DNA of 48,124 bases, from assembly GCA_963663965.2 (NCBI GenBank), contig CAXXFK010000014.1:1-48124 (forward strand), read 5' to 3'. This document shows positions 1,537-47,471 of this stretch, in pieces. A program made the translations under genes and the position numbers. Source of the DNA: Sedimentisphaerales bacterium. Lineage in GTDB: Bacteria > Planctomycetota > Phycisphaerae > Sedimentisphaerales > SM23-30. Under the pieces are notes generated by a model, which ran no database searches, was not told the origin of the DNA, and was given only the letters and a program-made list of their open reading frames with translations. Numbering within the stretch: position 1 is the first letter of the stretch; every line of letters begins with the position of its first letter.

Positions 1537-2670
1537 CTATTCCTGACGGATTATGCGAGCTCGAAGCGCCGAGGCGTCTTCCAGGGCATAAATCACTTTG
1601 ATTTTCTTTTCAATCGGGATATTCAACTGGTCCAGCGCGTCGATCAGGTCGTTGATCTGGGCCGAATTTTTTTCGGCTGATATCGAATTGGGACCAGGAA
1701 GAATCCCGGATTACCGGCTGGTTGGGTTGCGGAACCGGTTCAGGATCGACAATCCGGATCGCCATGCCATCCACTGTGACCACACAGGGCGCAATATCGA
1801 CATTGGCGGTAATGGCGATCGTGCCGGCCTTTTCGTTAATCACAATCGTCGCTTCCGGCGGGGGAATTTCCACCACCAGATTCATAATCCGGGCGATATA
1901 GTTGGCGTAATTCTTCATTTGCGAGGTTGGAATCGTCAACCCGGACGGTACGGGGATCGATCACCATGGCCGAACGCTGCATCATCAGCGCTTCCTCTTC
2001 AACCATGTCCACTCCCGGTATCGTATTCATATCTTCAATCACCATCGCCACCGCGTCAGCCGTGCGCCAACTGGATTGCGCTTCGTCAATAACCAGGTCA
2101 AAAAAACGTGCGTTTGCCAATTTCATCCTGGCTGACAAAATGATTGAAGAAGTCATATTCGATATCGGCGCCGGATTTCACCTGGCCATGAGTGGGATGG
2201 GCATTGTCCGGGATCGAAATGGGACCCTGCGCCCAGGCGTAAACCCGGTCATCTTTGATATTGGTGCTTTGCAGCGGGGTGGGTAACAACATACCACCGG
2301 CCAGACTGGACGCCTTGCCGGGACTGGAGACCGTGACATCGATTTGATCGCCGCTGCGCACCCCATTGCGGTTCAAGCGAGCCGTAATCATCACAATAGC
2401 CACATTTTTAGCGTTTTTCAGATCCTCCAGACCGGCCGGCGGATTGCCCAGCTTTTGCAATAAGGTGAGCATTGGCCGCGCCGTTATCAATACATCGCCG
2501 CCATCGCCCGTTCCGTTCAAACCCACCACCAGGCCCCATCCCATCAGGGTATTTTCCCGTTCACCCAGCGGCCGGGCAATATCACGGATACGGGTCAGTG
2601 CGCCGGCGGGTTGCGTCGTCAGCAACACCGTCAGTATGATTGTCAGAGCTATGGTAATGACTTTCTTCAT
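1537..2670 (-). CDS. flgI: Flagellar P-ring protein FlgI; three apparent +1 frameshifts (~2100-2130, ~1940, ~1670)
   Basis: Contains RIRDIA..GERENTLMGWGLVVGLNGTGD, KNVAIVMITA, ASSLAGGMLL and IVINEKAGTIAI. The restored C-terminus INDLIDALDQLNIP..ALRARIIRQE ends at TAG 1537-1539. Confidence 0.9.
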
Positions 2671-33961: not shown

Positions 33962-33996
33962 AAACGATCCCAATACGAAAATTGGGATCGTTTTTT
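33962..33996. terminator. Terminator between the convergent SUFU and GH78 genes
   Basis: Perfect 13-bp stem AAACGATCCCAAT-acgaaa-ATTGGGATCGTTT with a T tail. Confidence 0.85.
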
Positions 33997-36178
33997 ATTC
34001 ACACACAATCACATGCATCCCAGAACTGATCGGATCGATAAACCGTGATCCGTTTTCATGCTGTATCGTCGCTGCGGCGTCATCTAACCTCACCGAATCC
34101 AATCCAATACAGTTCCGGGGTATCACCAGGCGCGCCGTCATATTCACCGGAATAGCCAGCTCAAAAATACATTTCTCCGACTGTTTATCCATCGCCACCG
34201 CGACTGCTCCGCGTATTGTCGGAATCCGCGCCTCAAACCGGCTCAGCGACGCCGGCTGCGGCGCGATCAACGCCTTGGCAAAACCCGGTTCCAGCGGCCG
34301 CAAACCCACCACGAATCGCGGAATGATATTCGCCGGGGCCGCACCCCAGGCATGATTCCAGTCCAGGTTCGGCTTGTATTGGATGCCCCATGCTTCCATG
34401 CTGATCGTCGAGCCCTCCCGCATCATATTTACCCAGCCTCTGGTTCCGTCCGAGGTCATCAGCGCCAGCGCCGCCGCCTCTTCGCCCGACAGATACAACG
34501 CCTCCAGCAGATACTGGGCCCCGTACACACTGCATGCCATCCCTTTCGACACGACAAAATCAACCACCTCGCCCCGCCGCGCCTCCGGTACCAGTCCAAA
34601 TGCCAGCGCCCACATATTGGCATGCAGGGAGGAATGCGTTGTCCCTTCGCCATCGACATACAATCCGGTCTGGCTATTGAAACAAACCGACTGAAACGCC
34701 TGATAGACCACAGACGCATCCTGCGCGAACTGCTCCGCGTCGCTCGTCCGGCCCAGCACACCGGCAATCTTTCCCATCAGGTTCAGGGTATGATAATAAA
34801 ACGCGTTCACCACCGTATTCACCGGCTTAAATACATACCCATCCCGCTCTCCACTCGGCCAGTCCACAATATCACGCAGGTCGCCGGTACTCAACAACCC
34901 ATCCTCCCGAGCGTACTGGGCCAGCAGTTTATCATCCTTTAATGTATCGTAATGCTCGGCCAGCGATTCGCTGTTGCCCGTATACAGATAATCCGCCCAG
35001 GCCATCATGATCGAATGCTGCTTCCATTCCGTCGGCCAGGTCGCGTGCGACAACAGATATTCATGCGAATACCGCGCCAGGCTGAATTCCCGGTCCACAC
35101 TGTAGTGACACAACTGGTTAATATAAGCATCCGCTTCATACGGCTTGCGTTCACGGTCGCCATCCACATACACCCCGCAGAAACTGGTCGGCTTGATGCT
35201 GTAACGACACAATTCCCATACCTCGTTCAGCGTCTGGTTATCGCAAACAAACGCCGCGCCGTCATCATCAAATGGATAATGAACCGAAATCTGCCGAATA
35301 TCGGCCGGGGTTACCGTATATGGGCAGTTCACCAGTTCCACATACCGAAATGGCGCGATCCGGCCAAACTCCGCCGGTATCGCGATCCCCGTCGTCGTGC
35401 CCGGCGGATGAATCTCATAATCGGTCGAGCCATCCATCGTAACAGCCGTCTGGTAATAACGGATCGTTCCACCCGGATTGCGATCCACCCCATCGCCACT
35501 CAGTTTCTCGCCAAAGTGAACCGTTACCGTCTCACCCGTCGCCTGACTGCCCGCCGTCAGCCGTACCAACGTCGAATCGGCAGTCCCCATCCGTAACAGT
35601 TCATGCGGCGGCCGCCAGCGGATATATCCAAACGCGTCCCGGCCGAAATCGACCAGCCAACGCCCCTCTTCGATCTTCGTCACACTCACCGGCGCCACAT
35701 CACTGGTCTGCTGCTTATAGCGCGCGGTACTGTAGCCCGACAATGAACTTCCCGTCTTGAATGTCTGGGCAGCCGACCACGCCGAAACCTCATCCTGTTT
35801 GTCCCAGGTTCGTACCCGCCAGACATACGAGCTATTCACGCTTAACGCCGCGCCGCCATAAACCACATTGATTGAATTCGCACTGACCACCTTGCCGCTG
35901 TCCCACCGGTTCGGATTATCCTGCTCCAGTAAACTTCCATCCGTCGCCACCTGAATCTGATAAGCCGTCTGGTCATTCCCCTTGATCTCCGCATTCACAA
36001 TCCAGCCAAACTCAGGCCGCGCGTCCCCTATCGTCGTTAACTCAGGCATCGCCAGCAATTCACACAGCAATCCCGTGGGCGCCGGACCAGCACTGCAAAT
36101 ACCCGCCGGCATCCCGGCCAACAGGATCATCCAGATCGCTTTGATGACCGTCTTCTTGCACAAACCACTAATTTCCAT
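33995..36178 (-). CDS. Secreted alpha-L-rhamnosidase-like glycoside hydrolase (GH78)
   Basis: Signal peptide, Fn3-like QTAYQIQVA..WDSGKV, LVDFGRDAFG, YVDGDRER, DIVDWP and DWNHAWGAAP. The likely start is ATG 36178. Confidence 0.9.
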   Translation of the reverse strand: MEISGLCKKTVIKAIWMILLAGMPAGICSAGPAPTGLLCELLAMPELTTIGDARPEFGWIVNAEIKGNDQTAYQIQVATDGSLLEQDNPNRWDSGKVVSANSINVVYGGAALSVNSSYVWRVRTWDKQDEVSAWSAAQTFKTGSSLSGYSTARYKQQTSDVAPVSVTKIEEGRWLVDFGRDAFGYIRWRPPHELLRMGTADSTLVRLTAGSQATGETVTVHFGEKLSGDGVDRNPGGTIRYYQTAVTMDGSTDYEIHPPGTTTGIAIPAEFGRIAPFRYVELVNCPYTVTPADIRQISVHYPFDDDGAAFVCDNQTLNEVWELCRYSIKPTSFCGVYVDGDRERKPYEADAYINQLCHYSVDREFSLARYSHEYLLSHATWPTEWKQHSIMMAWADYLYTGNSESLAEHYDTLKDDKLLAQYAREDGLLSTGDLRDIVDWPSGERDGYVFKPVNTVVNAFYYHTLNLMGKIAGVLGRTSDAEQFAQDASVVYQAFQSVCFNSQTGLYVDGEGTTHSSLHANMWALAFGLVPEARRGEVVDFVVSKGMACSVYGAQYLLEALYLSGEEAAALALMTSDGTRGWVNMMREGSTISMEAWGIQYKPNLDWNHAWGAAPANIIPRFVVGLRPLEPGFAKALIAPQPASLSRFEARIPTIRGAVAVAMDKQSEKCIFELAIPVNMTARLVIPRNCIGLDSVRLDDAAATIQHENGSRFIDPISSGMHVIVCE

Positions 36179-36192
36179 AATGCAACCTCTCT

Positions 36193-38157
36193 CTAAAGGA
36201 TAACTGGATATAAGCCATCGTTTAACCACTCAGCACACAACAGCGAAAAATCAATCAGATCGATCTGACCATCCGGCTGCCCTGCCCCGCCCGTCAGATC
36301 ATAGCGCGTATCCGCGCTTAAATAGGATACCGCAAACAGAGCCAGATCGTAAAGATCAATCTGACAATCCGGTTCGCCCTCCGGTCCCGTCTGGTCACAT
36401 CGTTCGCAATAGTGCTGTATACATGACCTCAAACCCGAAAAGCCAAACCGCAAATCTCCCATCTGTTCGGCTGTCAATGCGTAATTGTAAATCCGCACAT
36501 CATCGATAGCCCCGTCGAATCGATCAGCCCCCTCCCCGGCATGACCTATACTCAAATACGCCTCTGTCTGGGTCGCCAGCGGCCACGCTACCTCCCCCTG
36601 TAACGCCCCATCCAGATAAAGCCTGACGTTTTCCCCATCAAAAACCGTGCAGATATGCTGCCACCGGCCATCAGACCTTAAACCATCGGCCACTGTCAGC
36701 GCTGATCCATTATCCGAAGTCATCACAAAATCATCCCGGCCCTCCATGCCCGGCTGCCAGTTGGCCCAGTAGGATATCGTATAGCCCCCGGTATATTGTG
36801 CCGGTGCGATCGGGCCCAACTGCGCCCAGCCGCCTGCCGCGCCGATCAAAGCGGCCCCATTCCCAGCGCCATCTGCCCCGGCGACAAAGGCCGCGCTGCC
36901 GCCAATAATCGCATCATGCCCTCCCATAATATCGCGGTAATGACTCCCATCAAAATCCTCCTGATCCATGGTCCAGTGCGCCCATAATCCCTTCACCGTT
37001 AATACCGCCGCTTGGGATATTGCCGGGCCGGCAATATTGATCACCTCGGCATAATAACTCCCGCCATCGGCCATCGTTACCGCCGCCAGAGTCAGCGTCG
37101 TGCGATAACGCTTCAAAACCGAGTCATATTCCAGCCTCATCGAGACGTTTGCATCCGAAGAGTTGAGTTCAACCTCTCCCTCTTCTGTCTGCTTATACCA
37201 CTGGACGATTGGATACGTCAGACTGGTAAATTCAACCTCAAAACTGGCCGCTTCTGCCTCTTCCCGAATCTGGTCAGCCGGATGAGATACCACATTCGGC
37301 ATATCCGGACTTAAACCAAATATCATTTCGCCCGCCGCGCGCGCAACCCGGCTGATACGCACCTCGTCAATAAAACCTTCAAAGTTTTCCGTAAAGCCAT
37401 TACCCGCCCGCAATTCGTTACCCACACAGAAAAAGACATTCACATTATTCGCAAAATCCTCACCCTGTGTCATGCCAATCAGATTCGCCTCGGTCACCCC
37501 CGAATTCAGCTTCGTCCAGTACAACCGCAAACTGCCGGCATCGCTCGCGTCGCCGTTATAAGTCACCGCCACATGATACCATTTTCCTGCCGCATAGGCA
37601 TTCGCCCCGCTGGTAGGTATCGGCACAATCAGATCACCCCCGCCCATGATATTGGCCCATTCCAGGTTACCCCCGGTATTAATCCGAAACTGCCAGGCCC
37701 GCGCCGCCGCCGAGATCCCGCTATCGGCACAGATAATCTCCATATGATTCGGGATCGACCCCGGCCCCACCATTGGCATAATAATCGCCTCGAATGTAAA
37801 CGCCCCGTCGCTGCCGATAAAGTTTGTTATCGGTAAAGCGCCCGGATACGCCCCGGTCGAGGTATAAGGCCCGCCCCCCGTCACTCCGTCATAGGTATTC
37901 AACGCCCGGTCAAACCCTGAAATCGAAATCCCGTTCGTGGCCGCGCCGTCATATAACGATAAATGCGCCGGATCGGCCGTAACCGCATCGGTTCCATCCC
38001 CGTCAAAATGATACAAATGCAGAGTGTCGGCATCGACCTCATAAGGCATAAAATCCGCCGCCTGAGCCATCAAACCAGCCAGCAAACTAATACTGAAAAT
38101 AATACAAATTGAATGGTTTTTTAAGGTATGCAAATGGAACCTCTCTTTATTCTCCAA
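36193..38157 (-). CDS. Secreted LamG + Ig + LamG protein with a C-terminal dockerin-like tag
   Basis: TLHLYHFD..FTFEA..WYHVAVTY..FEGFIDEVRIS, an Ig domain, a second LamG (FDGAIDDVRIYNYAL), then PDCQIDLYDL..DGQIDLIDF..EWL. Confidence 0.88.
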   Translation of the reverse strand: MENKERFHLHTLKNHSICIIFSISLLAGLMAQAADFMPYEVDADTLHLYHFDGDGTDAVTADPAHLSLYDGAATNGISISGFDRALNTYDGVTGGGPYTSTGAYPGALPITNFIGSDGAFTFEAIIMPMVGPGSIPNHMEIICADSGISAAARAWQFRINTGGNLEWANIMGGGDLIVPIPTSGANAYAAGKWYHVAVTYNGDASDAGSLRLYWTKLNSGVTEANLIGMTQGEDFANNVNVFFCVGNELRAGNGFTENFEGFIDEVRISRVARAAGEMIFGLSPDMPNVVSHPADQIREEAEAASFEVEFTSLTYPIVQWYKQTEEGEVELNSSDANVSMRLEYDSVLKRYRTTLTLAAVTMADGGSYYAEVINIAGPAISQAAVLTVKGLWAHWTMDQEDFDGSHYRDIMGGHDAIIGGSAAFVAGADGAGNGAALIGAAGGWAQLGPIAPAQYTGGYTISYWANWQPGMEGRDDFVMTSDNGSALTVADGLRSDGRWQHICTVFDGENVRLYLDGALQGEVAWPLATQTEAYLSIGHAGEGADRFDGAIDDVRIYNYALTAEQMGDLRFGFSGLRSCIQHYCERCDQTGPEGEPDCQIDLYDLALFAVSYLSADTRYDLTGGAGQPDGQIDLIDFSLLCAEWLNDGLYPVIL

Positions 38158-38174
38158 ACGATGAAAACTAAATA

Positions 38175-38212
38175 AAAAAACCGGCTGAAAAGGCGCTCCC
38201 TTCCCAGCCGGT
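38175..38212 (-). terminator. Terminator after the PEP-CTERM LamG gene
   Basis: Minus strand reads ACCGGCTGGGAAGG..CCTTTTCAGCCGGT followed by a T-run. Confidence 0.75.
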
Positions 38213-38224
38213 GATTCATTTCAA

Positions 38225-39037
38225 TTACTTCTTTCTGCGAATCAATAAAGATCCAACCCCCAGCAACAGCATCGTGGCCGGTTCCGGTACAACATACATA
38301 TCGGCCGCATCACGGGCAATACTGCTGATTCGAACTTCATCGATCAGACCTTCAAAGTTCTCATTACCATAACCGCTGTTAACACGCAGCTCATTGCCAA
38401 TGCAGAAACGGGTCATATCCGCAGCGTCCATATCGACCGCCATCGAAAAGGATCCTACTTCCTGAGCGGCCTCAGCAGTGCCAACCTCAGTCCAGTACAA
38501 CTTCAGATTATCAGCATCACCGGCGTTACCATTATAAGTAACGGCGGCATGATACCATTTGCCGGCTTCATACACAATGCTCGCATCGAAAGCCGGATGC
38601 GCGCCTGACAACTGCTGGAACCGCAGTTGAGTCCCGTTGTTCTGAATCCGGAACTGGAATCCCCGGTCATCCGCGCCGCCATCGTTTTCCCCACAGATAA
38701 TTTCCATGTGGGTAAACAGGCCGATTGGCCCCATGTCCGGCCGTACCAGCGCTTCAAACGTGAATGCACCGTCAGTTCCCGTCAGGCTTGAAATCGCCAC
38801 GGTGTTCAGATCATCACTGGCATAGGGGCCTGTCGCAACCGAGGTGCCATCGTACGTATTCAATACCCCGCCGCTGATCGTGGCGCCATTGTAAACCGAG
38901 ACATTCAATGATCCCGCCGAGTCCGTGCCATCCGCGTCGAAATGGTATAAATGCAAGGTTGAGGAATCCACCTCATATGCGCCGGATACCAATCCGACAG
39001 ACAAACATAAAATTAATAACACCAACAACTGCTTCAT
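38225..39037 (-). CDS. LamG-domain PEP-CTERM surface protein
   Basis: Signal peptide, LamG motifs, and the C-terminus VPEPATMLLLGVGSLLIRRKK. Confidence 0.92.
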   Translation of the reverse strand: MKQLLVLLILCLSVGLVSGAYEVDSSTLHLYHFDADGTDSAGSLNVSVYNGATISGGVLNTYDGTSVATGPYASDDLNTVAISSLTGTDGAFTFEALVRPDMGPIGLFTHMEIICGENDGGADDRGFQFRIQNNGTQLRFQQLSGAHPAFDASIVYEAGKWYHAAVTYNGNAGDADNLKLYWTEVGTAEAAQEVGSFSMAVDMDAADMTRFCIGNELRVNSGYGNENFEGLIDEVRISSIARDAADMYVVPEPATMLLLGVGSLLIRRKK

Positions 39038-39651
39038 CTTCGCATCTCCTGTTATTTTAAGAAATATTTACACCCGCAGGAAACATTCCAGCGGCCAATT
39101 CAGAGTTTTTCCTTCATACAATCGCTCTGTATATAAATAGAATATTCTCCCACAGACACACTCTACTATTTAAAAAACGTACCCCCCCCGAAAATTGGTA
39201 GCAAAAAATCCGATTTTCAGTAAATAATTTAATGCCATTATATCGGACAAAATAGATAGTTCATCGGTTTCATTACCTTAACCAATGCAATGATAATGTA
39301 TTACAACTCCTGTACTGTCCTATAACCGCTGGTTATCCCCTGCTATATTCCCAAGTTAAATCAAACACGCCAATCTTTCCCCTTTTAACTATATTGCCCA
39401 TCCCGCCAATAGTCAACGATTCTGGTTTATCAGGACTGGATTATTAAACAAAATAGATTTGTCTTTGGTGACATTTCGGATCATAATTTACATAAATATC
39501 CAATTTCGGATCGAATGTTATGCTTTTCCAAACCAGACAGAGATTGACAGCGTGACAGATACCAGACTTGGCCTCTTAAACCATGATGAATAGATCACAA
39601 ATGTGATTGTAATAATAACCTGTTACAACTATTTAGAAAGGCTGGTGTTAA

Positions 39652-40515
39652 ATGTTGACGAGACGTTATGTGATGTGCACGGTGTGTCTGGTGCTGTTAG
39701 TCACTGCCGGAATCGGCCTGGCCGGTTCAAAAATCGACGGCTGGGTCATCGATGATTTTGAAAGCTATAGCTCCACGGCAGATATGAAAGCCTCAGGATT
39801 CGGAACCGGCGGCCCCTGGTGGATTCTGCAGGAATTACAGGTCGCTCTCGGGATGATTACCATTCCCCCTGGTACCAATCTCAGTATCGAACTGGTTCAG
39901 GATCCCAACGCCTATGTGGCTAACGGAACCCCGGATGATCCCAACAATCCCGGCCAGGGCGTCGAAATCCATTATGATATTACCTCGGGAATATCGTGCG
40001 ATCTGTTTCGATTCACCAATACCATGGGGATACCCTATGATCTCATCGCCACCGGGATGCCGGCGCCGCTGGATTACCTGCCGATTGCCGATTTTACCCA
40101 ATATGACAAACTCTCTTTTAAGGTGATGAATTTACCCGGCAATGACCAGGGCAATACGAACAATTTCACCGTCGCTTTAGTCGGTCCGGATACCAAAGCG
40201 ATCGGTAACTATCGTTGGTCCACCGAAGATGGAAATTGTTTTGAATACCCCGAGAATGTCTGGATGATTGTGGAACTCGACCTGAAAAACGGTATGGAAC
40301 CGGGCGATTCCAGTTTCGGGCCCGATATGGTCTCGGGCATCACCCTGGGAACCTACGACCGTGGCGGGACATATGTCACCTATATCATCGATGATATTAT
40401 GTTATCTAACCAATCCGTACCCTGCCCAGACTACTCACCGGCCGACGTCAATCTGGATTGCAGCGTCAATCTGGAAGACCTGATGGCGCTAACCTTAGAC
40501 TGGCTGAGTTTATAA
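39652..40515 (+). CDS. Secreted protein with a carbohydrate-binding-like fold and a dockerin-like tag
   Basis: Signal peptide, IDDFESY...DFTQYDKLSF...YIIDDIML, and PADVNLDCSVNLEDL..DWL. Confidence 0.85.
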   Translation: MLTRRYVMCTVCLVLLVTAGIGLAGSKIDGWVIDDFESYSSTADMKASGFGTGGPWWILQELQVALGMITIPPGTNLSIELVQDPNAYVANGTPDDPNNPGQGVEIHYDITSGISCDLFRFTNTMGIPYDLIATGMPAPLDYLPIADFTQYDKLSFKVMNLPGNDQGNTNNFTVALVGPDTKAIGNYRWSTEDGNCFEYPENVWMIVELDLKNGMEPGDSSFGPDMVSGITLGTYDRGGTYVTYIIDDIMLSNQSVPCPDYSPADVNLDCSVNLEDLMALTLDWLSL

Positions 40516-40680
40516 CAGTGTGATTTTAACAGAATGTAATTTCATAAAATGGCCGGACGACTCATCCCGTTCCGGCCTGTCCTCTGTTTGAATTCTTAAA
40601 TATTCACTCAAATATTATTTATGTTTCATAAAGCCTGGATTAATAACCTTACAATCTTGTTTTTTTCAATATTTGAACTA

Positions 40681-40797
40681 AGAGTGCCTGATAAAATGAT
40701 TTTTTCTAGCGAGGCGAGCGAAAAAGTTGTCGGCAAAGTCGCAGCAGACAACTTTTGCAGCCGGTCGCATTAGAAAACTTATTTTATGAGGGAATCT
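40681..40797. repeat. Palindromic MITE/REP-like element, copy 1
   Basis: Imperfect ~27-bp terminal IRs (AGAGTGCCTGATAAAATGATTTTTTCTA / TAGAAAACTTATTTTATGAGGGAATCT) and a perfect inner IR (AAAAGTTGTC / GACAACTTTT). Confidence 0.8.
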
Positions 40798-40912
40798 AAA
40801 CCTCAAACAAAAATTGATTAGTTTTCTTTTTGACTAAATAATATCTTTTTGATATATTGAATGCTCGGTTATTTGAAATATCATTTTATTAAATTTTGCG
40901 AGGAGGCAAAAA

Positions 40913-41707
40913 ATGAAAAAATGGCAGTTTTTGTTGGTCGTATTAGTTGCTCTATCTGGTCTGTCGCATGCTGCTATGGTAGGTTTTTCTCCGGTAGAAG
41001 GCTACACGACTGACAATTTACAGGGTCAGCCTGGTAGCGGTAGTGTCTGGAATTGTACAGAGAATAACAGTCTCTATATCTTTCGGGTAAAGACTGAAAC
41101 AACTAACGCCCATACAGATTATCTGAATATTGCTCTGTCCTATGTTCACGGTACCGGCGATGACAATATTATTGACTATGCGACAAAACGCATGGAACCT
41201 GTTACTGGCTCTTTCAGCGCTGGTTACTGTTTTTACTATACTGCCTATGCCCATAATATCGGTGACGAAACCTGTATCGCTCTGGGTCAATCAAACGACT
41301 CCAATTGGGGCGTTTATCTTGGCGCCAATAAAACCAGTGCAGGATCCCTCGCCTATCATGATGGTAACGGCTGGAACGAAATCGTAACTGGATTACGTAC
41401 TCAAAAATGGTATTCCGTTATAATCAATGGCAATACGGATACCGGATTATTCGACCTGACGATTTATCAGGAGGATCTCATGGACAACCAGAATGCTACT
41501 GCCGGATTACTGGCAGAAGCCATAGGTTTGAGTTTCCGTGATAATCCGGATACCTTGGCGTACGTCATGCTTACGAACTTGGGATCCACTCAGGATACCG
41601 GGGGTTATAATCATCTCTATGACGATCTTTATCTGATACCTGAACCCGCCACGCTGACCATTTTTGGAGTGGGCGCATTGCTGATATTACGTCGTCGTTC
41701 ATCATAA
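40913..41707 (+). CDS. PEP-CTERM surface protein, AT-rich
   Basis: GAGGAGG RBS, signal peptide, and the C-terminus IPEPATLTIFGVGALLILRRRSS. Confidence 0.92.
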   Translation: MKKWQFLLVVLVALSGLSHAAMVGFSPVEGYTTDNLQGQPGSGSVWNCTENNSLYIFRVKTETTNAHTDYLNIALSYVHGTGDDNIIDYATKRMEPVTGSFSAGYCFYYTAYAHNIGDETCIALGQSNDSNWGVYLGANKTSAGSLAYHDGNGWNEIVTGLRTQKWYSVIINGNTDTGLFDLTIYQEDLMDNQNATAGLLAEAIGLSFRDNPDTLAYVMLTNLGSTQDTGGYNHLYDDLYLIPEPATLTIFGVGALLILRRRSS

Positions 41708-42281: not shown

Positions 42282-42551
42282 ATGGCCAAGGCACATGTTG
42301 ATCCCGATGAACTCAAACGGTTCGCGCGCGATCTCAACCGCTTCAACAACGATCTGGAAGGCCTCATGGGCGGCCTGCACCTCAAGCTGATGAATCTGGA
42401 AAAAACCTGGCAGGATCAGGAACAGCGTAAATTTTCCGCTGAATTTGAACTCACCATGAAAACCCTTGCCAGATTCCTCGATGTCAGCCGTCAGCATGTC
42501 GCGTTTCTGGTAAAAAAATCCCGCCATATCGAAGAATACCTCGGTCAATAG
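42282..42551 (+). CDS. WXG100 (ESAT-6-like) family protein, 89 aa
   Basis: GGAGG RBS, AHVDPDELKRFARDL N-terminus, central W-Q-D turn, and helix-turn-helix size. Confidence 0.88.
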   Translation: MAKAHVDPDELKRFARDLNRFNNDLEGLMGGLHLKLMNLEKTWQDQEQRKFSAEFELTMKTLARFLDVSRQHVAFLVKKSRHIEEYLGQ

Positions 42552-42560
42552 GAGCCCATC

Positions 42561-43157
42561 ATGTCAAGAATGGCCAAAGTTGGTTCGATTCAGGACTTAA
42601 TGGACTTCCGCGCTTCGCTGGCCAAGTTCATCCAGGCCGCCTCCGCCACCCTGGATGAGTCGCTCGGCGAGATCCGCCGCATCGAAAACTGGCTCAAGAA
42701 CGAACAGCCCGCCTACTGGAAAAAAAAGGAAATGTTCCTGACCGATAAAGTCACCCAGATCCGCCAGGATCTCAGCCGCAAACAGCAGCTGGATAGCGTC
42801 GGTCCGGTCCAGTCCCGTAAATCCTATGTCGACGAAAAACAGGCCCTCGAAAAAGCCAGACGCCTCCTGGAAGAAACTCAGGAAAAACTCAAAAATACCA
42901 AACGCTGGTCGGTGATTGTCGAACGCGAAGCCTCGATCTATCGCGGCATGACCAATGACCTGCGTGATATGCTCGAAGTCAAACTGCCCAACGCCCGGGC
43001 CCAGCTGGATAATATGGTCATGGCGCTCGAAGCCTATGCCGCCGTTGCCGAAGAGGAGGACCAGACCGGACCGGCGATGGTCTTCGATGAGGAACTTGAA
43101 TCGGATCAGCCGGATGACCAGTCAGAAAAAGAACCCAAACCGAAGGAGAAATCCTGA
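42561..43157 (+). CDS. Helical coiled-coil protein with an acidic tail (T7SS-like locus)
   Basis: AGGAG RBS, all-helical sequence with WL..EQPAYW, translationally coupled to the next gene. Confidence 0.85.
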   Translation: MSRMAKVGSIQDLMDFRASLAKFIQAASATLDESLGEIRRIENWLKNEQPAYWKKKEMFLTDKVTQIRQDLSRKQQLDSVGPVQSRKSYVDEKQALEKARRLLEETQEKLKNTKRWSVIVEREASIYRGMTNDLRDMLEVKLPNARAQLDNMVMALEAYAAVAEEEDQTGPAMVFDEELESDQPDDQSEKEPKPKEKS

Positions 43158-43369
43158 TGGCAATCAGCGGCAGCCACGCACGATTGAAAAAAGCCATGAC
43201 CGAACTCATGGTTCACTGGCACAATCTCCGGGGTTCCTGGCGCGACGCCAAGGCCGATGAGTTTGAAAAAACGGTTCTCGATCCGCTCCAGGCCCAGGTC
43301 CGCAAAGTGCAAACCGCCATGGAACAGATCGACTCGATCCTGAACAGCGCCCAGCACGATTGTGAATAA
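43157..43369 (+). CDS. Short WXG100-like helical hairpin protein (70 aa)
   Basis: AAGGAG RBS and TGATG overlap. The W-R-D-x-x-x-x-x-F motif (SWRDAKADEF) parallels TWQDQEQRKF in the first gene. Confidence 0.8.
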   Translation: MAISGSHARLKKAMTELMVHWHNLRGSWRDAKADEFEKTVLDPLQAQVRKVQTAMEQIDSILNSAQHDCE

Positions 43370-43445
43370 AATGATTGTCTGCTATCGGCCAGCCGATATG
43401 TGTAAAGAAGCAAACTGAGCACAATATTTTAAATGTAAGTAATTT

Positions 43446-46400
43446 ATGAGACTATCCAGCCCTGAACCTATCGATAATAATAATCTGAATACTCCACAGG
43501 ATCGGTTTAATGAATACCTGGCGGATCAACCGGATCCGTTAGGGGATGATTATCATGTTTTGCTCCATGCCGGCCTGCGTGAACTGGCCCGTCTGGCCGC
43601 CCCGGTCGTCGATCCTATTACCAGCGAAATCGAATCCCAATGGCAGGCCGACAGCAAAACCGCCCGTGAAAAACATGAAAAACTCAGTACGGCAGCCCAG
43701 GCGGAATACCACCAGCGTATCGCCTCAATCGAATCGGAGAAACGTCAGGCGCTGGAAAAACATGCCCGCCACTACGACCAGCATCGACGCCAACTGACTG
43801 ATCATGCCGAAGATGAACTCGAAACCCTGGAATCCCAGGCCAAAGCCCAACTACGCGACGCCGCCCAGGATCGGGATTATGAACTGATGACCGCCGATAC
43901 GGTCGCCAGGGAATCCCTGGCCAAAGCGCGGCATGACCATAATGTCTTTACTGAACAAATTATCCCCCAGGCTCGTGAACTGATGGACAGCCTGGAAAGC
44001 CGGGCCAACGCCCTGTTCCAGAAATACCGGCCTCTCGTCGGTAAGAGGATCACCTCTGAGCCATCTGCCACGCCAACAGACCATAACGAACCTCCTGCCC
44101 CGACTCCCGCTGAACCGGAAGATGCCGCGGCAGTATTCCGCGCCCAGCGCGAAGAAGCCGGCGCACAGATCGAAAAACTCGACCGGATGGTCCTGCCCCG
44201 GTTATTTGTCGGGCTCTGGCCCTGGCTGCTGCCCCTGCTGATCTCGGGATTGGCTGTTGGCGCGGCCTGGGCGCTCGAATTCCTGCAAATCCTGAATATC
44301 CCGCCCTTTAAAACCGGCGGCCCGATCTTCGGGATCATCGCCTTTGTTCTCGTGATGGGCTTGGGAATCCTGCTGCGTAAAAAAGCCGTCCAATCCATTC
44401 GCAAAATTTATCTTCCGCTGCAAATCCAGCTGCAACAGGCTCATCGCGCGATGGAACTGCACATCGATCGAACCGAAAATGAATACCAGCGTATCTTCGT
44501 CAGTATCAAAACCAAACGGGATGAGACCGTGGCACACCACACTGCCCGGTTCGATGAAATCAGAAAAAAACTGAGCGAAGATCTCCATAATCATAAAACA
44601 AAAATTCAACATAAACTGAAAGAAGCCCTTGAAAAAATCGAACAGCAGCATCGCCAGGCGACCGCCGAAATCGAACAACGCTCTCAAGCCGGTTTGAAAC
44701 ACGCTGAAACGGATATGGGACAAAAACGCATCGAATTAAAAAAACAATTCGAAACGGAAACCGCTGATCAAAAAATCAAGTATGATCTCGCCTACCAGAA
44801 ATTGTCCGAACGCTGGCAGAACGGCCTGGATCGAATCGTGGCCCTGCTGGATCGGATCGACAGCCTGCACGATACCGTCCGTCAATCCTGGGATGATCCC
44901 AACTGGCCCGACTGGATGCCCGATACCACCAGTACGGGGGTTATCCGCTTCGGCGAATTCCACCCGGATTGGAACGCGCTTTCTCAATCTGTCATGACGC
45001 GTATGACGGTCGATCCCCGCTGCCTTGCCGCGCCGGCCGTTCCTGCAGTATTGGATTTCCCCGATCATGGCTGTCTGTTATTCGAATACCGCCGCGAAGG
45101 CCGCGATCTGGCCATGTCCGCGCTCAAAGCCGCCGTTGCCCGCCTGGCAGTCTCCCTGCCGCCGGGCCGGGCCCGCTTTACCCTGATCGATCCGGTGGGC
45201 CTGGGTGAAAACTTCGCCGGTTTTATGCATCTGGCTGACTACGAAGAAGCCCTGATCGGTGGCCGCATCTGGACCGAGCCGCAACAGATCCAGCAGCAGC
45301 TCAGCGACCTGACCGGACACATGGAAAACGTCATCCAGAAATACCTCCGCAACGAATACGAAACCATCGATGAATACAACCGCCAGGCCGGCGAACTGGC
45401 CGAGCCCTACCGCTTCCTGATCATCGCCGATTTCCCCGCCAAGATCAGCGAAGAAGCCGCCCGACGGCTCAGCAGTATTATCGCCAGTGGCCCCCGTTGC
45501 GGGGTCTTTACCCTGATCGCCTGCGACAGCCGCGAAAAACTGCCCGAAGGTGTTCGCCTCGAAGATATCGAAGCCCATAGCCTGGTCATCCGTCATAAAG
45601 ATGACAATTTCGTTTACAACCATGCGGTTCTGGGCGCTATCCCGCTGAGCCTGGATCAGGCGCCCAGAGATGAACTGCTGACTGACCTCATGCAAAAAGT
45701 CGGACGCGGGGCGCGCGAAACCAACCGGGTCGAAGTCCCCTTCCAGTCCATTGCACCGGCTGCCGATCGCATGTGGTCATTGCATAGTAACAAAATCCTC
45801 ACCGTTCCGGTCGGACGCACCGGCGCCACGCGCCGCCAGCAGTTTACCCTCGGCAAAGGCGTCGCCCAGCACGCCCTGATCGGTGGTAAAACCGGTTCCG
45901 GTAAATCCACCCTGCTGCATGTATTAATTACCAATCTGGCCCTGTGGTATAGCCCGGACGAAGTCGAAATGTACCTGATCGACTTCAAAAAAGGCGTTGA
46001 GTTCAAAACCTACGTCACCCACGCCCTGCCCCATGCCCGGGCCGTCGCGATCGAAAGCGACCGCGAATTCGGTTTGAGTATCCTGCGCCAGATCGAAGCT
46101 GAGATGACCCGCCGCGGTGAAATGTTCCGTCGCGCCGGTGTCCAGGACCTCGCCGGCTGGCGCGAAGAATCTAAACAATCCATGCCCCGCATTTTATTAA
46201 TTGTGGATGAATTCCAGGTCTTCTTCAGTGAAGATGACAAACTGGCCCAGGATGCCGCCCTGCTCCTCGAACAACTGGTTCGCCAGGGCCGCGCTTTCGG
46301 CATCCATGTCGTCCTCGGCTCCCAGACCCTCGCCGGTACCTCCGGTCTCGCTCGCGGTACACTCGGCCAGATCGCCGTGCGTGTCGCCCTGCAATGTTCT

Positions 46401-47471
46401 GAAATGGACTCCCAACTGATTCTCGATGACAACAATACCGCCGCCCGTCTGCTGGGCCGTCCCGGCGAGGCGATCTATAACGATGCCGGTGGTCTGATCC
46501 AGGGCAACAGCCCCTTCCAGGTCTCCTGGCTGGATGATGACCAGCGCGATGACTATCTCAGCGAAGTCAATCGGCGCTATCAGCAAACCGGCAAACCGCC
46601 TCGCTCCATGATTGTCTTCGAAGGCAATATCCCTTCCGACATCCGCAAGAACCGACCTCTGGCCGAGTCTCTCCACACCACTCCACCGCAGATGCCGCTG
46701 ACGTCTCAAGCCTGGATCGGCGATCCGGTCGCGATCAAAGAACCCACCGCCGTCACCTTCCAGCGTCACAGTGGCTCCAATGCCATGATCGTCGGTCAAC
46801 GGGATGAATCCGTTCTGGCCATGCTCGCCGCCATGCAGCTATCCCTGGCCGCCCAGTATCCCACAAAATCCGTCAGTTTTTATGTCTTCGACGGGATGCC
46901 GGCCGATTCCAACCTGGCCGGCCAACTCCAAGCCATCGGCCAGTATATCCCCCGTTCCATCACTCATGTGGAATGGCGCGACGTCGAATCCACGATCGCT
47001 GAAATCGCCGGCGAAGTCGCCCGTCGCCAAGAAAAGGACCAGTTTGACGCCCCGGCTATTTTCATCATGATCTACGGCATGCAGCGCTACCGCATGCTGC
47101 GCAAAGCCGACGATGACTTCAGCTTCTCTATGGACGATGGGCCCAAACCGGCCAAGCCGGATAAACAGTTCGCCGAAATCCTGCGTGAAGGCCCCGCCGT
47201 TGGTGTCCACACCATTATCTGGTCCGATACCATGGCTACCCTCGAACGGACCTTTGACCGAAATTCCATGCGTGAATTTGACAACCGGATCCTCTTCCAG
47301 CTCAGCGCCTCCGACTCCAGCAATCTGATCGACACCCCTGCCGCCAATCAGCTCGGCCAGCATCGCGCCCTGCTCTACAGCGAAGAACACGGCACAATCG
47401 AAAAATTCCGCCCCTATGCGATTCCCCCCCTCGACTGGCTCAAAGACGCCTTTAAACCAGTCGGATCTTAA
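43446..47471 (+). CDS. FtsK/SpoIIIE-family ATPase (EccC/EssC-like) with coiled coils and two TM helices
   Basis: Walker A GGKTGSGKS (45882-45908), LIDFKKGVEF, Walker B LLIVDEFQ and RQGRAFGIH. Degenerate ATPase repeats flank it (LIDPVGLG..LIIADFP..SGPRCGV and EGPAVGVH). Confidence 0.92.
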   Translation: MRLSSPEPIDNNNLNTPQDRFNEYLADQPDPLGDDYHVLLHAGLRELARLAAPVVDPITSEIESQWQADSKTAREKHEKLSTAAQAEYHQRIASIESEKRQALEKHARHYDQHRRQLTDHAEDELETLESQAKAQLRDAAQDRDYELMTADTVARESLAKARHDHNVFTEQIIPQARELMDSLESRANALFQKYRPLVGKRITSEPSATPTDHNEPPAPTPAEPEDAAAVFRAQREEAGAQIEKLDRMVLPRLFVGLWPWLLPLLISGLAVGAAWALEFLQILNIPPFKTGGPIFGIIAFVLVMGLGILLRKKAVQSIRKIYLPLQIQLQQAHRAMELHIDRTENEYQRIFVSIKTKRDETVAHHTARFDEIRKKLSEDLHNHKTKIQHKLKEALEKIEQQHRQATAEIEQRSQAGLKHAETDMGQKRIELKKQFETETADQKIKYDLAYQKLSERWQNGLDRIVALLDRIDSLHDTVRQSWDDPNWPDWMPDTTSTGVIRFGEFHPDWNALSQSVMTRMTVDPRCLAAPAVPAVLDFPDHGCLLFEYRREGRDLAMSALKAAVARLAVSLPPGRARFTLIDPVGLGENFAGFMHLADYEEALIGGRIWTEPQQIQQQLSDLTGHMENVIQKYLRNEYETIDEYNRQAGELAEPYRFLIIADFPAKISEEAARRLSSIIASGPRCGVFTLIACDSREKLPEGVRLEDIEAHSLVIRHKDDNFVYNHAVLGAIPLSLDQAPRDELLTDLMQKVGRGARETNRVEVPFQSIAPAADRMWSLHSNKILTVPVGRTGATRRQQFTLGKGVAQHALIGGKTGSGKSTLLHVLITNLALWYSPDEVEMYLIDFKKGVEFKTYVTHALPHARAVAIESDREFGLSILRQIEAEMTRRGEMFRRAGVQDLAGWREESKQSMPRILLIVDEFQVFFSEDDKLAQDAALLLEQLVRQGRAFGIHVVLGSQTLAGTSGLARGTLGQIAVRVALQCSEMDSQLILDDNNTAARLLGRPGEAIYNDAGGLIQGNSPFQVSWLDDDQRDDYLSEVNRRYQQTGKPPRSMIVFEGNIPSDIRKNRPLAESLHTTPPQMPLTSQAWIGDPVAIKEPTAVTFQRHSGSNAMIVGQRDESVLAMLAAMQLSLAAQYPTKSVSFYVFDGMPADSNLAGQLQAIGQYIPRSITHVEWRDVESTIAEIAGEVARRQEKDQFDAPAIFIMIYGMQRYRMLRKADDDFSFSMDDGPKPAKPDKQFAEILREGPAVGVHTIIWSDTMATLERTFDRNSMREFDNRILFQLSASDSSNLIDTPAANQLGQHRALLYSEEHGTIEKFRPYAIPPLDWLKDAFKPVGS

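Follow-up and report, generated by a model that had tools for sequence, protein, structure and literature searches.

A four-gene cassette with type VII secretion-like features in a Sedimentisphaerales bacterium

The 48,124-nucleotide (nt) contig CAXXFK010000014.1 of a Sedimentisphaerales bacterium (Planctomycetota; assembly GCA_963663965.2) was analysed over its full length and is referred to here as the window; it is one whole contig of a 7.24-Mb assembly that is 94.6% complete. At positions 42282–47471 it was found to carry a cassette of four tightly packed genes, namely A and C, encoding small helical hairpins with a W-x-D turn, B, encoding a longer hairpin whose tail varies among relatives, and an FtsK/HerA-type ATPase gene. 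Gene order, motifs and domain architecture are conserved, and the genes are retained together. By analogy with type VII secretion systems (T7SS), the cassette may be a minimal inner-membrane protein translocator exporting four-helix bundles to the periplasm, a reading that we regard as evenly poised between right and wrong.

Layout, conservation and inheritance of the cassette

A preliminary description of this DNA had reported four co-oriented genes, and all four open reading frames (ORFs) were confirmed as intact on the plus strand. The intergenic gaps A-B, B-C and C-ATPase are 9, -1 and 76 nt, respectively, the ATG of gene C overlapping the stop of gene B. The features are as follows (aa, amino acids; NTPase, nucleoside triphosphatase; HMM, hidden Markov model):

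42282–42551, plus strand: gene A, 89 aa, EsxA/HP0062-like WXG100-family hairpin with a W-x-D turn (W43-Q-D, thus W43 and D45) and an invariant C-terminal Y86
42561–43157, plus strand: gene B, 198-aa carrier, with a conserved 168-aa helical hairpin (42561–43064) and a 30-aa acidic low-complexity tail
43157–43369, plus strand: gene C, 70 aa, truncated W-x-D hairpin (W28-R-D), predicted partner of B
43446–47471, plus strand: ATPase gene, 1341 aa, FtsK/HerA superfamily, with a long coiled coil, a two-helix membrane hairpin, a second long coiled coil and three tandem NTPase-fold domains
44202–44375, plus strand: predicted transmembrane hairpin, residues about 253–310, closed by a loop of about 8 residues and without a periplasmic domain
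45024–45584, plus strand: first NTPase-fold domain, residues about 527–713, degenerate and lacking a Walker A motif (domain HMM match and motif columns)
45804–46538, plus strand: middle ATPase domain, residues about 787–1031, intact
46710–47429, plus strand: C-terminal NTPase-fold domain, residues about 1089–1328, degenerate; candidate substrate-binding domain, as in EccC

The neighbourhood survey proposed in the preliminary description covered 180 loci (20 + 80 + 80 best matches), which are non-independent and many of which end at contig edges. All four genes are visible in 101 of these loci, and 100 of them share the gene order of the window, so the cassette is not a chance arrangement. No relaxase, VirB4 or integrase gene is conserved near the cassette in this set, and no linked defence gene was found in the planctomycete-type loci. 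Relatives of the ATPase in genome contigs were recovered with an alignment query, a query with the single ATPase giving none. At E ≤ 1e-60 the ATPase is present in 35 of 301 genomes of the phylum, 33 of which also encode B; B itself was found at E ≤ 1e-3 in 36 of the 301 (34 strong, 2 marginal), with one match each. Gene A was also found in 9 of 251 genomes (7 strong) from the phylum of a Verrucomicrobiota-titled record.

In family f8, as seen in two single-contig genomes, the operon has been broken up with all four genes kept. In one of them (G043) the ATPase gene lies at 5.92 Mb, A at 2.50 Mb and B-C at 4.30 Mb, while in the other (G156) the positions of the four are 0.23, 0.71, 2.66 and 1.94 Mb; cassette genes are retained in 10 of the 15 genomes of the family. 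The four genes are functionally coupled and are co-retained even after scattering. When the ATPase tree was compared with submitter host names (54 rows, 7 labels, several rows being discordant), 14 label changes were counted against a mean of 33.9 and a minimum of 29 in 500 shuffles. This suggests mostly vertical inheritance of the ATPase with some transfer, and is not evidence of co-evolution, as the kin are non-independent.

The two ATPase-positive genomes lacking B have a different layout (L156:5083-11671, G008; L157:7042-13569, G176), in which a separate hydrophobic gene of ~120 aa stands between A and an ATPase gene whose product has no membrane segment. An overlapping gene encodes a ~980-aa protein with 2–3 hydrophobic segments and no PADLOC match, and neither B nor C was found alongside. 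A further genome has a second ATPase copy with no A, B or C nearby (L158:6660-11006, G091).

The ATPase and the three hairpin proteins

Only the middle domain of the ATPase has intact motifs, namely Walker A (GKTGSGKS, residues 814–821), Walker B (D921-E922) and R946. The sequence G[KR]TGSGKS is present in 72/72 aligned rows, 70 of which have a single Walker A, and D921, E922 and R946 are invariant. A membrane anchor is predicted by hydrophobic windows at residues 253 and 292 (Kyte-Doolittle 1.97 and 2.51) and by a helix-loop-helix in the structure model, the call being made from these two sources rather than by a dedicated topology predictor.

The ATPase scores 119.5 bits on Pfam FtsK_SpoIIIE, one of the HMM checks suggested in the preliminary description. 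More specific profiles gave 133 bits for EssC, 115 for EccCa and 113 for EccCb compared with 30.5 for the NCBIfam FtsK profile (cut-off 1566), all far under the curated cut-offs. The same ranking of EccC/EssC over FtsK and TcpA was obtained from PDB sequence matches (EccC, E 6.7e-38; FtsK, 2e-13) and from the fold search (EccC 1e-29, EssC 4e-19, FtsK 5e-10, TcpA 1e-8). Whole-protein scores of all three kinds are inflated by the repeated domains. The domain HMM that finds three domains in the window ATPase finds three clear domains and a weak fourth in EccC/EssC controls.

A quick tree was built from 91 domain rows of 37 proteins, including one EssC and no named T7SSc-j reference. In it the active domain falls in a 22-row clade of its own (Shimodaira–Hasegawa-like approximate likelihood ratio test, SH-aLRT, 98) with ATPases from Helicobacter, Caballeronia, two Rhodococcus and Deinococcus plasmids. 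Neither the EccC/EssC first-domain group (94) nor the nine-row FtsK/SpoIIIE/TcpA group (86) includes this clade, so the active domain does not nest among the DNA-translocating ATPases, a placement that the preliminary description had named as fatal to its reading. The description of the ATPase as EccC-like stands in that the protein has several domains and ranks EccC/EssC first; it does not stand as regards its separate clade, its three domains and its position in the tree, which is considered below.

At least 8000 homologues of the ATPase exist (each of the 8000 candidates scored has E ≤ 1e-30), mostly named 'FtsK' in databases. Its named relatives are Planctomycetota, and the nearest named rows of the tree include two Sedimentisphaerales records. 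A record titled as a Klebsiella sp. metagenome-assembled genome (L127) groups with two Verrucomicrobiota-titled records (99), and its title or bin is probably wrong. PADLOC matches of the ATPase to SspH, mad8, HerA, ZorA and LeoBC were rejected as generic ATPase or coiled-coil similarity.

Protein A scores 28.3 bits on the Pfam WXG100 family, above the cut-off of 27.3, and 26.9 bits on TIGR03930, under the cut-off of 44.85, while C reaches 16.5 bits on the Pfam family, below the cut-off. The best PDB sequence match of both is Helicobacter pylori HP0062 (E 3.5e-5 for A and 2.6e-4 for C). The W-x-D turn is found in 70/70 A members and 78/78 C members, all taken from ATPase-selected loci, in place of the strict W-x-G of WXG100. 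In the part tested, the WXG100-like hairpins of the preliminary description thus hold as relatives of HP0062 and WXG100.

W43, D45 and Y86 are invariant across the aligned A members, and A has a mean per-column identity of 65% across the phylum. Its conserved C-terminal helix (A-x-x-I-E-E-Y-L) fits the first part of the HxxxD/ExxhxxxH export pattern; C has neither the tyrosine nor a C-terminal pattern of this type. Profile similarity by hhalign is weak both for A-B (8%) and for C-A (39%). A, B and C are each single-copy in the host genome and have no hydrophobic segment (highest hydropathy 0.77). Viral contigs yielded no confirmed relative of A; an unannotated 10-kb 'phage' record has a 28% match to the ATPase.

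For B no Pfam family was found above cut-off, and none recurs in 74 B members. AlphaFold2 predicts B(1-168) as one long hairpin (helices 10–80 and 90–167, arms of about 70 residues each) with a predicted local distance difference test (pLDDT) score of 93.7, in line with the helical partner of the preliminary description. Fold and PDB sequence searches with B returned generic coiled coils and allowed no LXG, PPE or ESCRT-III assignment, ESCRT-III chains appearing at ranks 42–44 among ties in the fold search. Relatives of B comprise 3257 cluster representatives at E ≤ 1e-3, and the conserved part ends in an invariant tyrosine (Y159).

A complex of the three small proteins had been proposed for modelling, and in the three-chain model C lies along B residues 2–49 and 109–152 with a score of 0.82, compared with 0.54 for the best control, in which C was kept and B was swapped. 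The mark applied is reached by 116/157 solved pairs and 2/215 mismatched pairs, runs share at least 95% of contacts, and the partner pLDDT is at least 90. The model supports binding of C to B, and its pass may reflect resemblance to solved four-helix bundles. In this model C touches A at residues 3 and 86–87 only. The layout of B and C recalls the LXG-Lap rod and the PE-PPE dimers (as described in part in PMC10801868), and by this analogy C may have a Lap- or PE-like role.

The tail of B, distant relatives and genomic setting

What the preliminary description had called simply a helical partner is also the variable position of the cassette. Among 130 complete B genes the tail following the hairpin ranges from 0 to more than 200 aa, with 34 tails of 0–30 aa, 61 of 31–100, 2 of 101–150 and 33 of more than 150; 95 of the 130 are thus no longer than 100 aa. 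All 33 long tails match a profile made from Pfam-confirmed Imm33-like tails. Among 79 representatives of at least 255 aa, from the best 150, 59 are Imm33-like (55 above cut-off), 1 is a phosphodiesterase and 19 have no family. Matches in the ESM Atlas were limited to Planctomycetota clusters without names and an Imm33-like cluster at 0.84. Neither a single-protein nor an alignment search found longer forms of B, a result that is uninformative, the alignment having missed known Imm33-like fusions of ~350 aa. The Imm33-tail HMM has no match in the host genome.

Other tails were noted in passing. The phosphodiesterase case is P0268 (674 aa), in which the B hairpin is joined to a type I phosphodiesterase/nucleotide pyrophosphatase domain; it is a lone case and may be a mis-called fusion. 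By eye, a second C-terminal domain of ~60 aa without a Pfam family recurs after the linker in P0129, P0209, P0223, P0232, P0253, P0262, P0273 and L196:1204-2205. A linker motif, [SAG]-M-x-R, is present in 59 of 150 B representatives and absent from the window protein.

The preliminary description had reported no toxin-immunity pair, and no immunity gene was found within the cassette. B and C are separated by no more than 150 nt in 116 of 124 loci and by 359 nt at the most, which leaves no space for a usual immunity gene.

In the distant relatives the gene following A encodes a helical protein with an additional tail. On the Helicobacter plasmid it carries a WHH nuclease and is followed by an SMI1/KNR4 gene. 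In Caballeronia and in genome G463 the tail is restriction-like; it has no Pfam match, and its assignment as a nuclease is taken from the passages of Bell et al. (2024; PMC11090510) on these loci. B can be considered a variable cargo position which such nuclease fusions occupy in distant relatives, an interpretation that follows largely from gene position, since homology between B and these carriers is weak; a Rhodococcus protein reached 27 bits against B. The neighbourhood in Caballeronia contains vWA/PP2C/kinase, CARF-nuclease (897 bits) and MkoA-like helicase genes, and G463 has the same layout of vWA/PP2C/kinase and helicase genes, the CARF-nuclease gene being noted for Caballeronia. Next to a related ATPase gene on a Rhodococcus plasmid (L136:2352-10969) are genes annotated as Hsp70-family, TPR and GrpE, and a 628-aa gene on the Helicobacter plasmid (L052:2465-6743) is Hsp70/actin-like by eye only, with no Pfam match.

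FlgH and FlgI are encoded in the window and a BamA-like Omp85 on another contig, so the host is diderm, as the preliminary description had concluded from the two flagellar proteins. The flgI gene (1598–2670, minus strand) is in at least two pieces in different frames (Pfam positions 1–164 and 203–275) near homopolymer runs. These breaks are probably assembly indels, and caution is therefore needed with other broken genes of this assembly. A second FlgI-domain match lies on another contig within a 576-aa frame (G000:C11:41627-42322, minus strand).

The G+C content of the cassette is similar to that of the remaining window. Upstream neighbours are PEP-CTERM/LamG proteins, part of a secreted-protein cluster (33995–41707) with a rhamnosidase-like glycoside hydrolase, LamG/Ig-domain proteins and two PEP-CTERM proteins, which is not kept beside the cassette in relatives. 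The downstream neighbour is a convergent ORF without an assigned family. A scan for promoters and terminators gave counts at chance level (2 vs 3.7; 9 vs 7.2).

Relation to known systems and possible function

Related loci had been said to be known from bioinformatics, which is true, and the record goes further than was supposed. Planctomycetes are named by Zhang et al. (2012) among mobile T7SS versions with a 'solo WXG + distinct YueA-like ATPase' (PMC3482391, Table 1 footnote 6), and the cassette of the window is the same system: it has three NTPase-fold domains with the middle one active, adjacent WXG-type proteins A and C, and an ATPase of the shared clade. The footnote is a single sentence, and the passages on this module mention neither gene B nor gene C, neither the membrane hairpin nor fusions of the Imm33-like kind. 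It calls these systems mobile, whereas the planctomycete cassettes examined here appear mostly inherited and single-copy.

Membrane-less, nuclease-carrying versions in defence loci, including extensions of CoCoNuT systems, are described in the relevant sections of Bell et al. (2024; PMC11090510), where Anantharaman et al. (2012) is cited for stand-alone copies in other genomes. Common to that module and the cassette are an ATPase that has an N-terminal coiled coil and three domains, of which the central one alone is active, and two WXG100-type proteins with a coiled-coil carrier gene between them; loci L053 and L253 fit the description. In the loci as these sections describe them, however, the ATPases are without membrane helices, a restriction-like nuclease is joined to the carrier, a further small gene comes next, and the setting is a defence superoperon. 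In the window the ATPase has a membrane hairpin, and a nuclease, a further small gene and neighbouring defence genes are all absent. Assignment to the CoCoNuT/TerY-P-linked subtype was ruled out by the two hydrophobic helices, the 30-aa tail and the absence of such neighbours. HP0062 (PDB 3FX7/2GTS) is described in part in PMC3397514 as a W-R-D helix hairpin of unknown function which forms an antiparallel dimer and is clustered with an FtsK-domain gene; A and C are likewise W-x-D hairpins beside an FtsK-type gene. The Helicobacter plasmid locus differs from the window in its 823-aa ATPase without membrane helices and its WHH nuclease-SMI1/KNR4 pair.

The cassette shares with T7SSa and T7SSb-j a membrane-bound multi-domain FtsK-type ATPase and a WXG100 hairpin (PMC11217815, PMC10801868, in the parts dealing with these systems). 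In these systems a carrier and small helical partners form a rod (PMC10801868, in part), and the predicted arrangement of B and C is similar. T7SSa-j ATPases have four C-terminal NTPase domains (PMC11217815, in part) and the systems include accessory parts (EccB/D/E and MycP; EssA/B and EsaA/B; Tsx proteins), whereas no accessory gene was found here. Further differences are W-x-D rather than W-x-G, three domains, an ATPase clade of its own and a host of the lipopolysaccharide (LPS)-type diderm class. On account of the three NTPase domains and the separate clade, the cassette does not belong to T7SSa-j; our verdict is that by analogy it would nevertheless work like a type VII module. WXG100 proteins were found almost only in Gram-positive phyla because W-x-G was required by Poulsen et al. 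(2014; PMC3935865, in its relevant part). Nothing on the module is contained in the pertinent passages of PMC3113570 and PMC6952346. As the preliminary description had supposed, no experimental study was found in the literature searched, most subscription journals being outside its coverage. Within the same literature the membrane-anchored, toxin-free planctomycete form, its Imm33-like cargo and its retention after scattering were not found, although Supplementary file 1 of PMC11090510 may list planctomycete loci.

Read as a translocator, the cassette would function as follows. The ATPase would be anchored by its two-helix hairpin and suspended in the cytoplasm on a long coiled-coil stalk. It would oligomerise, presumably as a hexamer as is known in this family, hydrolyse ATP in the middle domain alone and recognise four-helix bundles. 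A would be the EsxA-like core substrate or activator, probably a homodimer by analogy with HP0062, and C would clamp the B hairpin into a rod, as Lap and PE proteins do for LXG and PPE carriers. The cargo would be anything attached to B at its C-terminus. As the cargo slot of the host holds only a 30-aa acidic tail, the product would be the bundle itself or its binder, and as there is no linked outer-membrane partner, delivery would be to the periplasm only. Both the fact and the direction of export are suggested by analogy with T7SS.

Several observations weigh against export. It is questionable whether a single two-helix ATPase could form a channel. EssB and LXG have no match in the 94.6% complete host genome (controls positive in Bacillus subtilis), nor has EccB (control positive in Corynebacterium). 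The preliminary description had noted no accessory genes adjacent, and the EccD/EsaB ubiquitin-like component, EccE, MycP, EssA and EsaA were likewise not found adjoining the cassette, a genome-wide search for them not having been made. The survey gave no fifth conserved neighbour, the best other cluster occurring in 17 of 180 loci. The host B has no cargo domain, and there is no second B in the genome. In Helicobacter, Caballeronia and G463 neither the ATPase nor the cassette genes have a hydrophobic segment above 1.71, yet the cargo is of the nuclease type, and for membrane-less loci a different mechanism is deemed likely in the corresponding section of Bell et al. (2024; PMC11090510). The hhalign probability of B is 24% against the Caballeronia carrier and 0.35% against that of Helicobacter. 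Finally, the quick tree joins the ATPase clade to the FtsK/SpoIIIE/TcpA side (88) and not to EccC/EssC, with the branching order unsettled, which speaks against the ATPase being a simple orthologue of EccC.

Since a membrane anchor is absent from the nearest relatives that bear a toxin, the main competitor of export is an intracellular conflict or stress device, in which the ATPase would bind the helical bundle within the cytoplasm and pull it apart; this we consider unlikely, yet to be taken seriously. In nuclease-bearing relatives the nuclease would be released or activated upon phage infection, and the planctomycete form would be a nuclease-free, membrane-tethered sensor or decoy. The defence neighbourhoods of the membrane-less relatives (Caballeronia, G463; the CoCoNuT extensions as outlined in PMC11090510) fit this explanation, as do the Imm33-like tails, which are immunity-type domains. 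However, planctomycete-type loci have neither a nuclease nor a linked defence gene, PADLOC on the window proteins gave generic ATPase-domain matches only, and the single copy and the tree mostly matching host names are unlike typical mobile defence systems.

A membrane-remodelling or pore module, in which the hairpins, above all B, would polymerise on or insert into the membrane while the ATPase assembles or recycles them in an envelope role, is decidedly improbable. It would suit the plain B hairpin with its ~70-residue arms, the very long ATPase stalk ending in a hydrophobic hairpin, the pores made by some Esx proteins (PMC7810871, in part) and the housekeeping-like retention in some families such as f8. 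Against it, hydrophobic segments are absent from A, B and C, fold searches returned generic coiled coils with ESCRT-III far down the ranking, and the cassette was found in no more than 35 of the 301 genomes of the phylum, which argues against a core function in cell biology.

That the ATPase is a DNA translocase or conjugative coupling protein of the FtsK/TcpA type, with incidental helical neighbours, is very improbable. 'FtsK' is its most frequent database name, and the tree join at 88 points the same way, but a separate canonical FtsK of the host genome groups with SpoIIIE/FtsK, the three tandem domains are foreign to the FtsK/TcpA layout, and the gene is tightly linked to W-x-D hairpins with no conserved relaxase, VirB4 or integrase gene nearby. 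Least probable of all is a disarmed and currently functionless relic of a mobile toxin cassette, which would account for the empty cargo slot here and in most relatives but not for invariant catalytic residues, the conservation of A or the four genes kept together after scattering.

Returning to export, a fuller form of the proposal is doubtful: that in LPS-diderm bacteria the cassette works as a type VII-type exporter with one membrane protein, and that planctomycetes have domesticated its swappable cargo slot, the toxin of mobile relatives being replaced by nothing or by an immunity-type (Imm33-like) domain, so that defensive instead of toxic cargo would be brought to the periplasm. The natural series of membrane-less ATPases with nucleases, anchored ATPases with empty or Imm33-like tails, and split anchors can separate export from intracellular defence. 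If the cassette does not export, it would represent a new use of ESAT-6-like hairpins. If it does, a minimal set of parts for type VII export would be defined, type VII secretion would be extended to Gram-negative bacteria, and a four-gene system would be available for asking whether an EccC/EssC-type ATPase alone is the channel.

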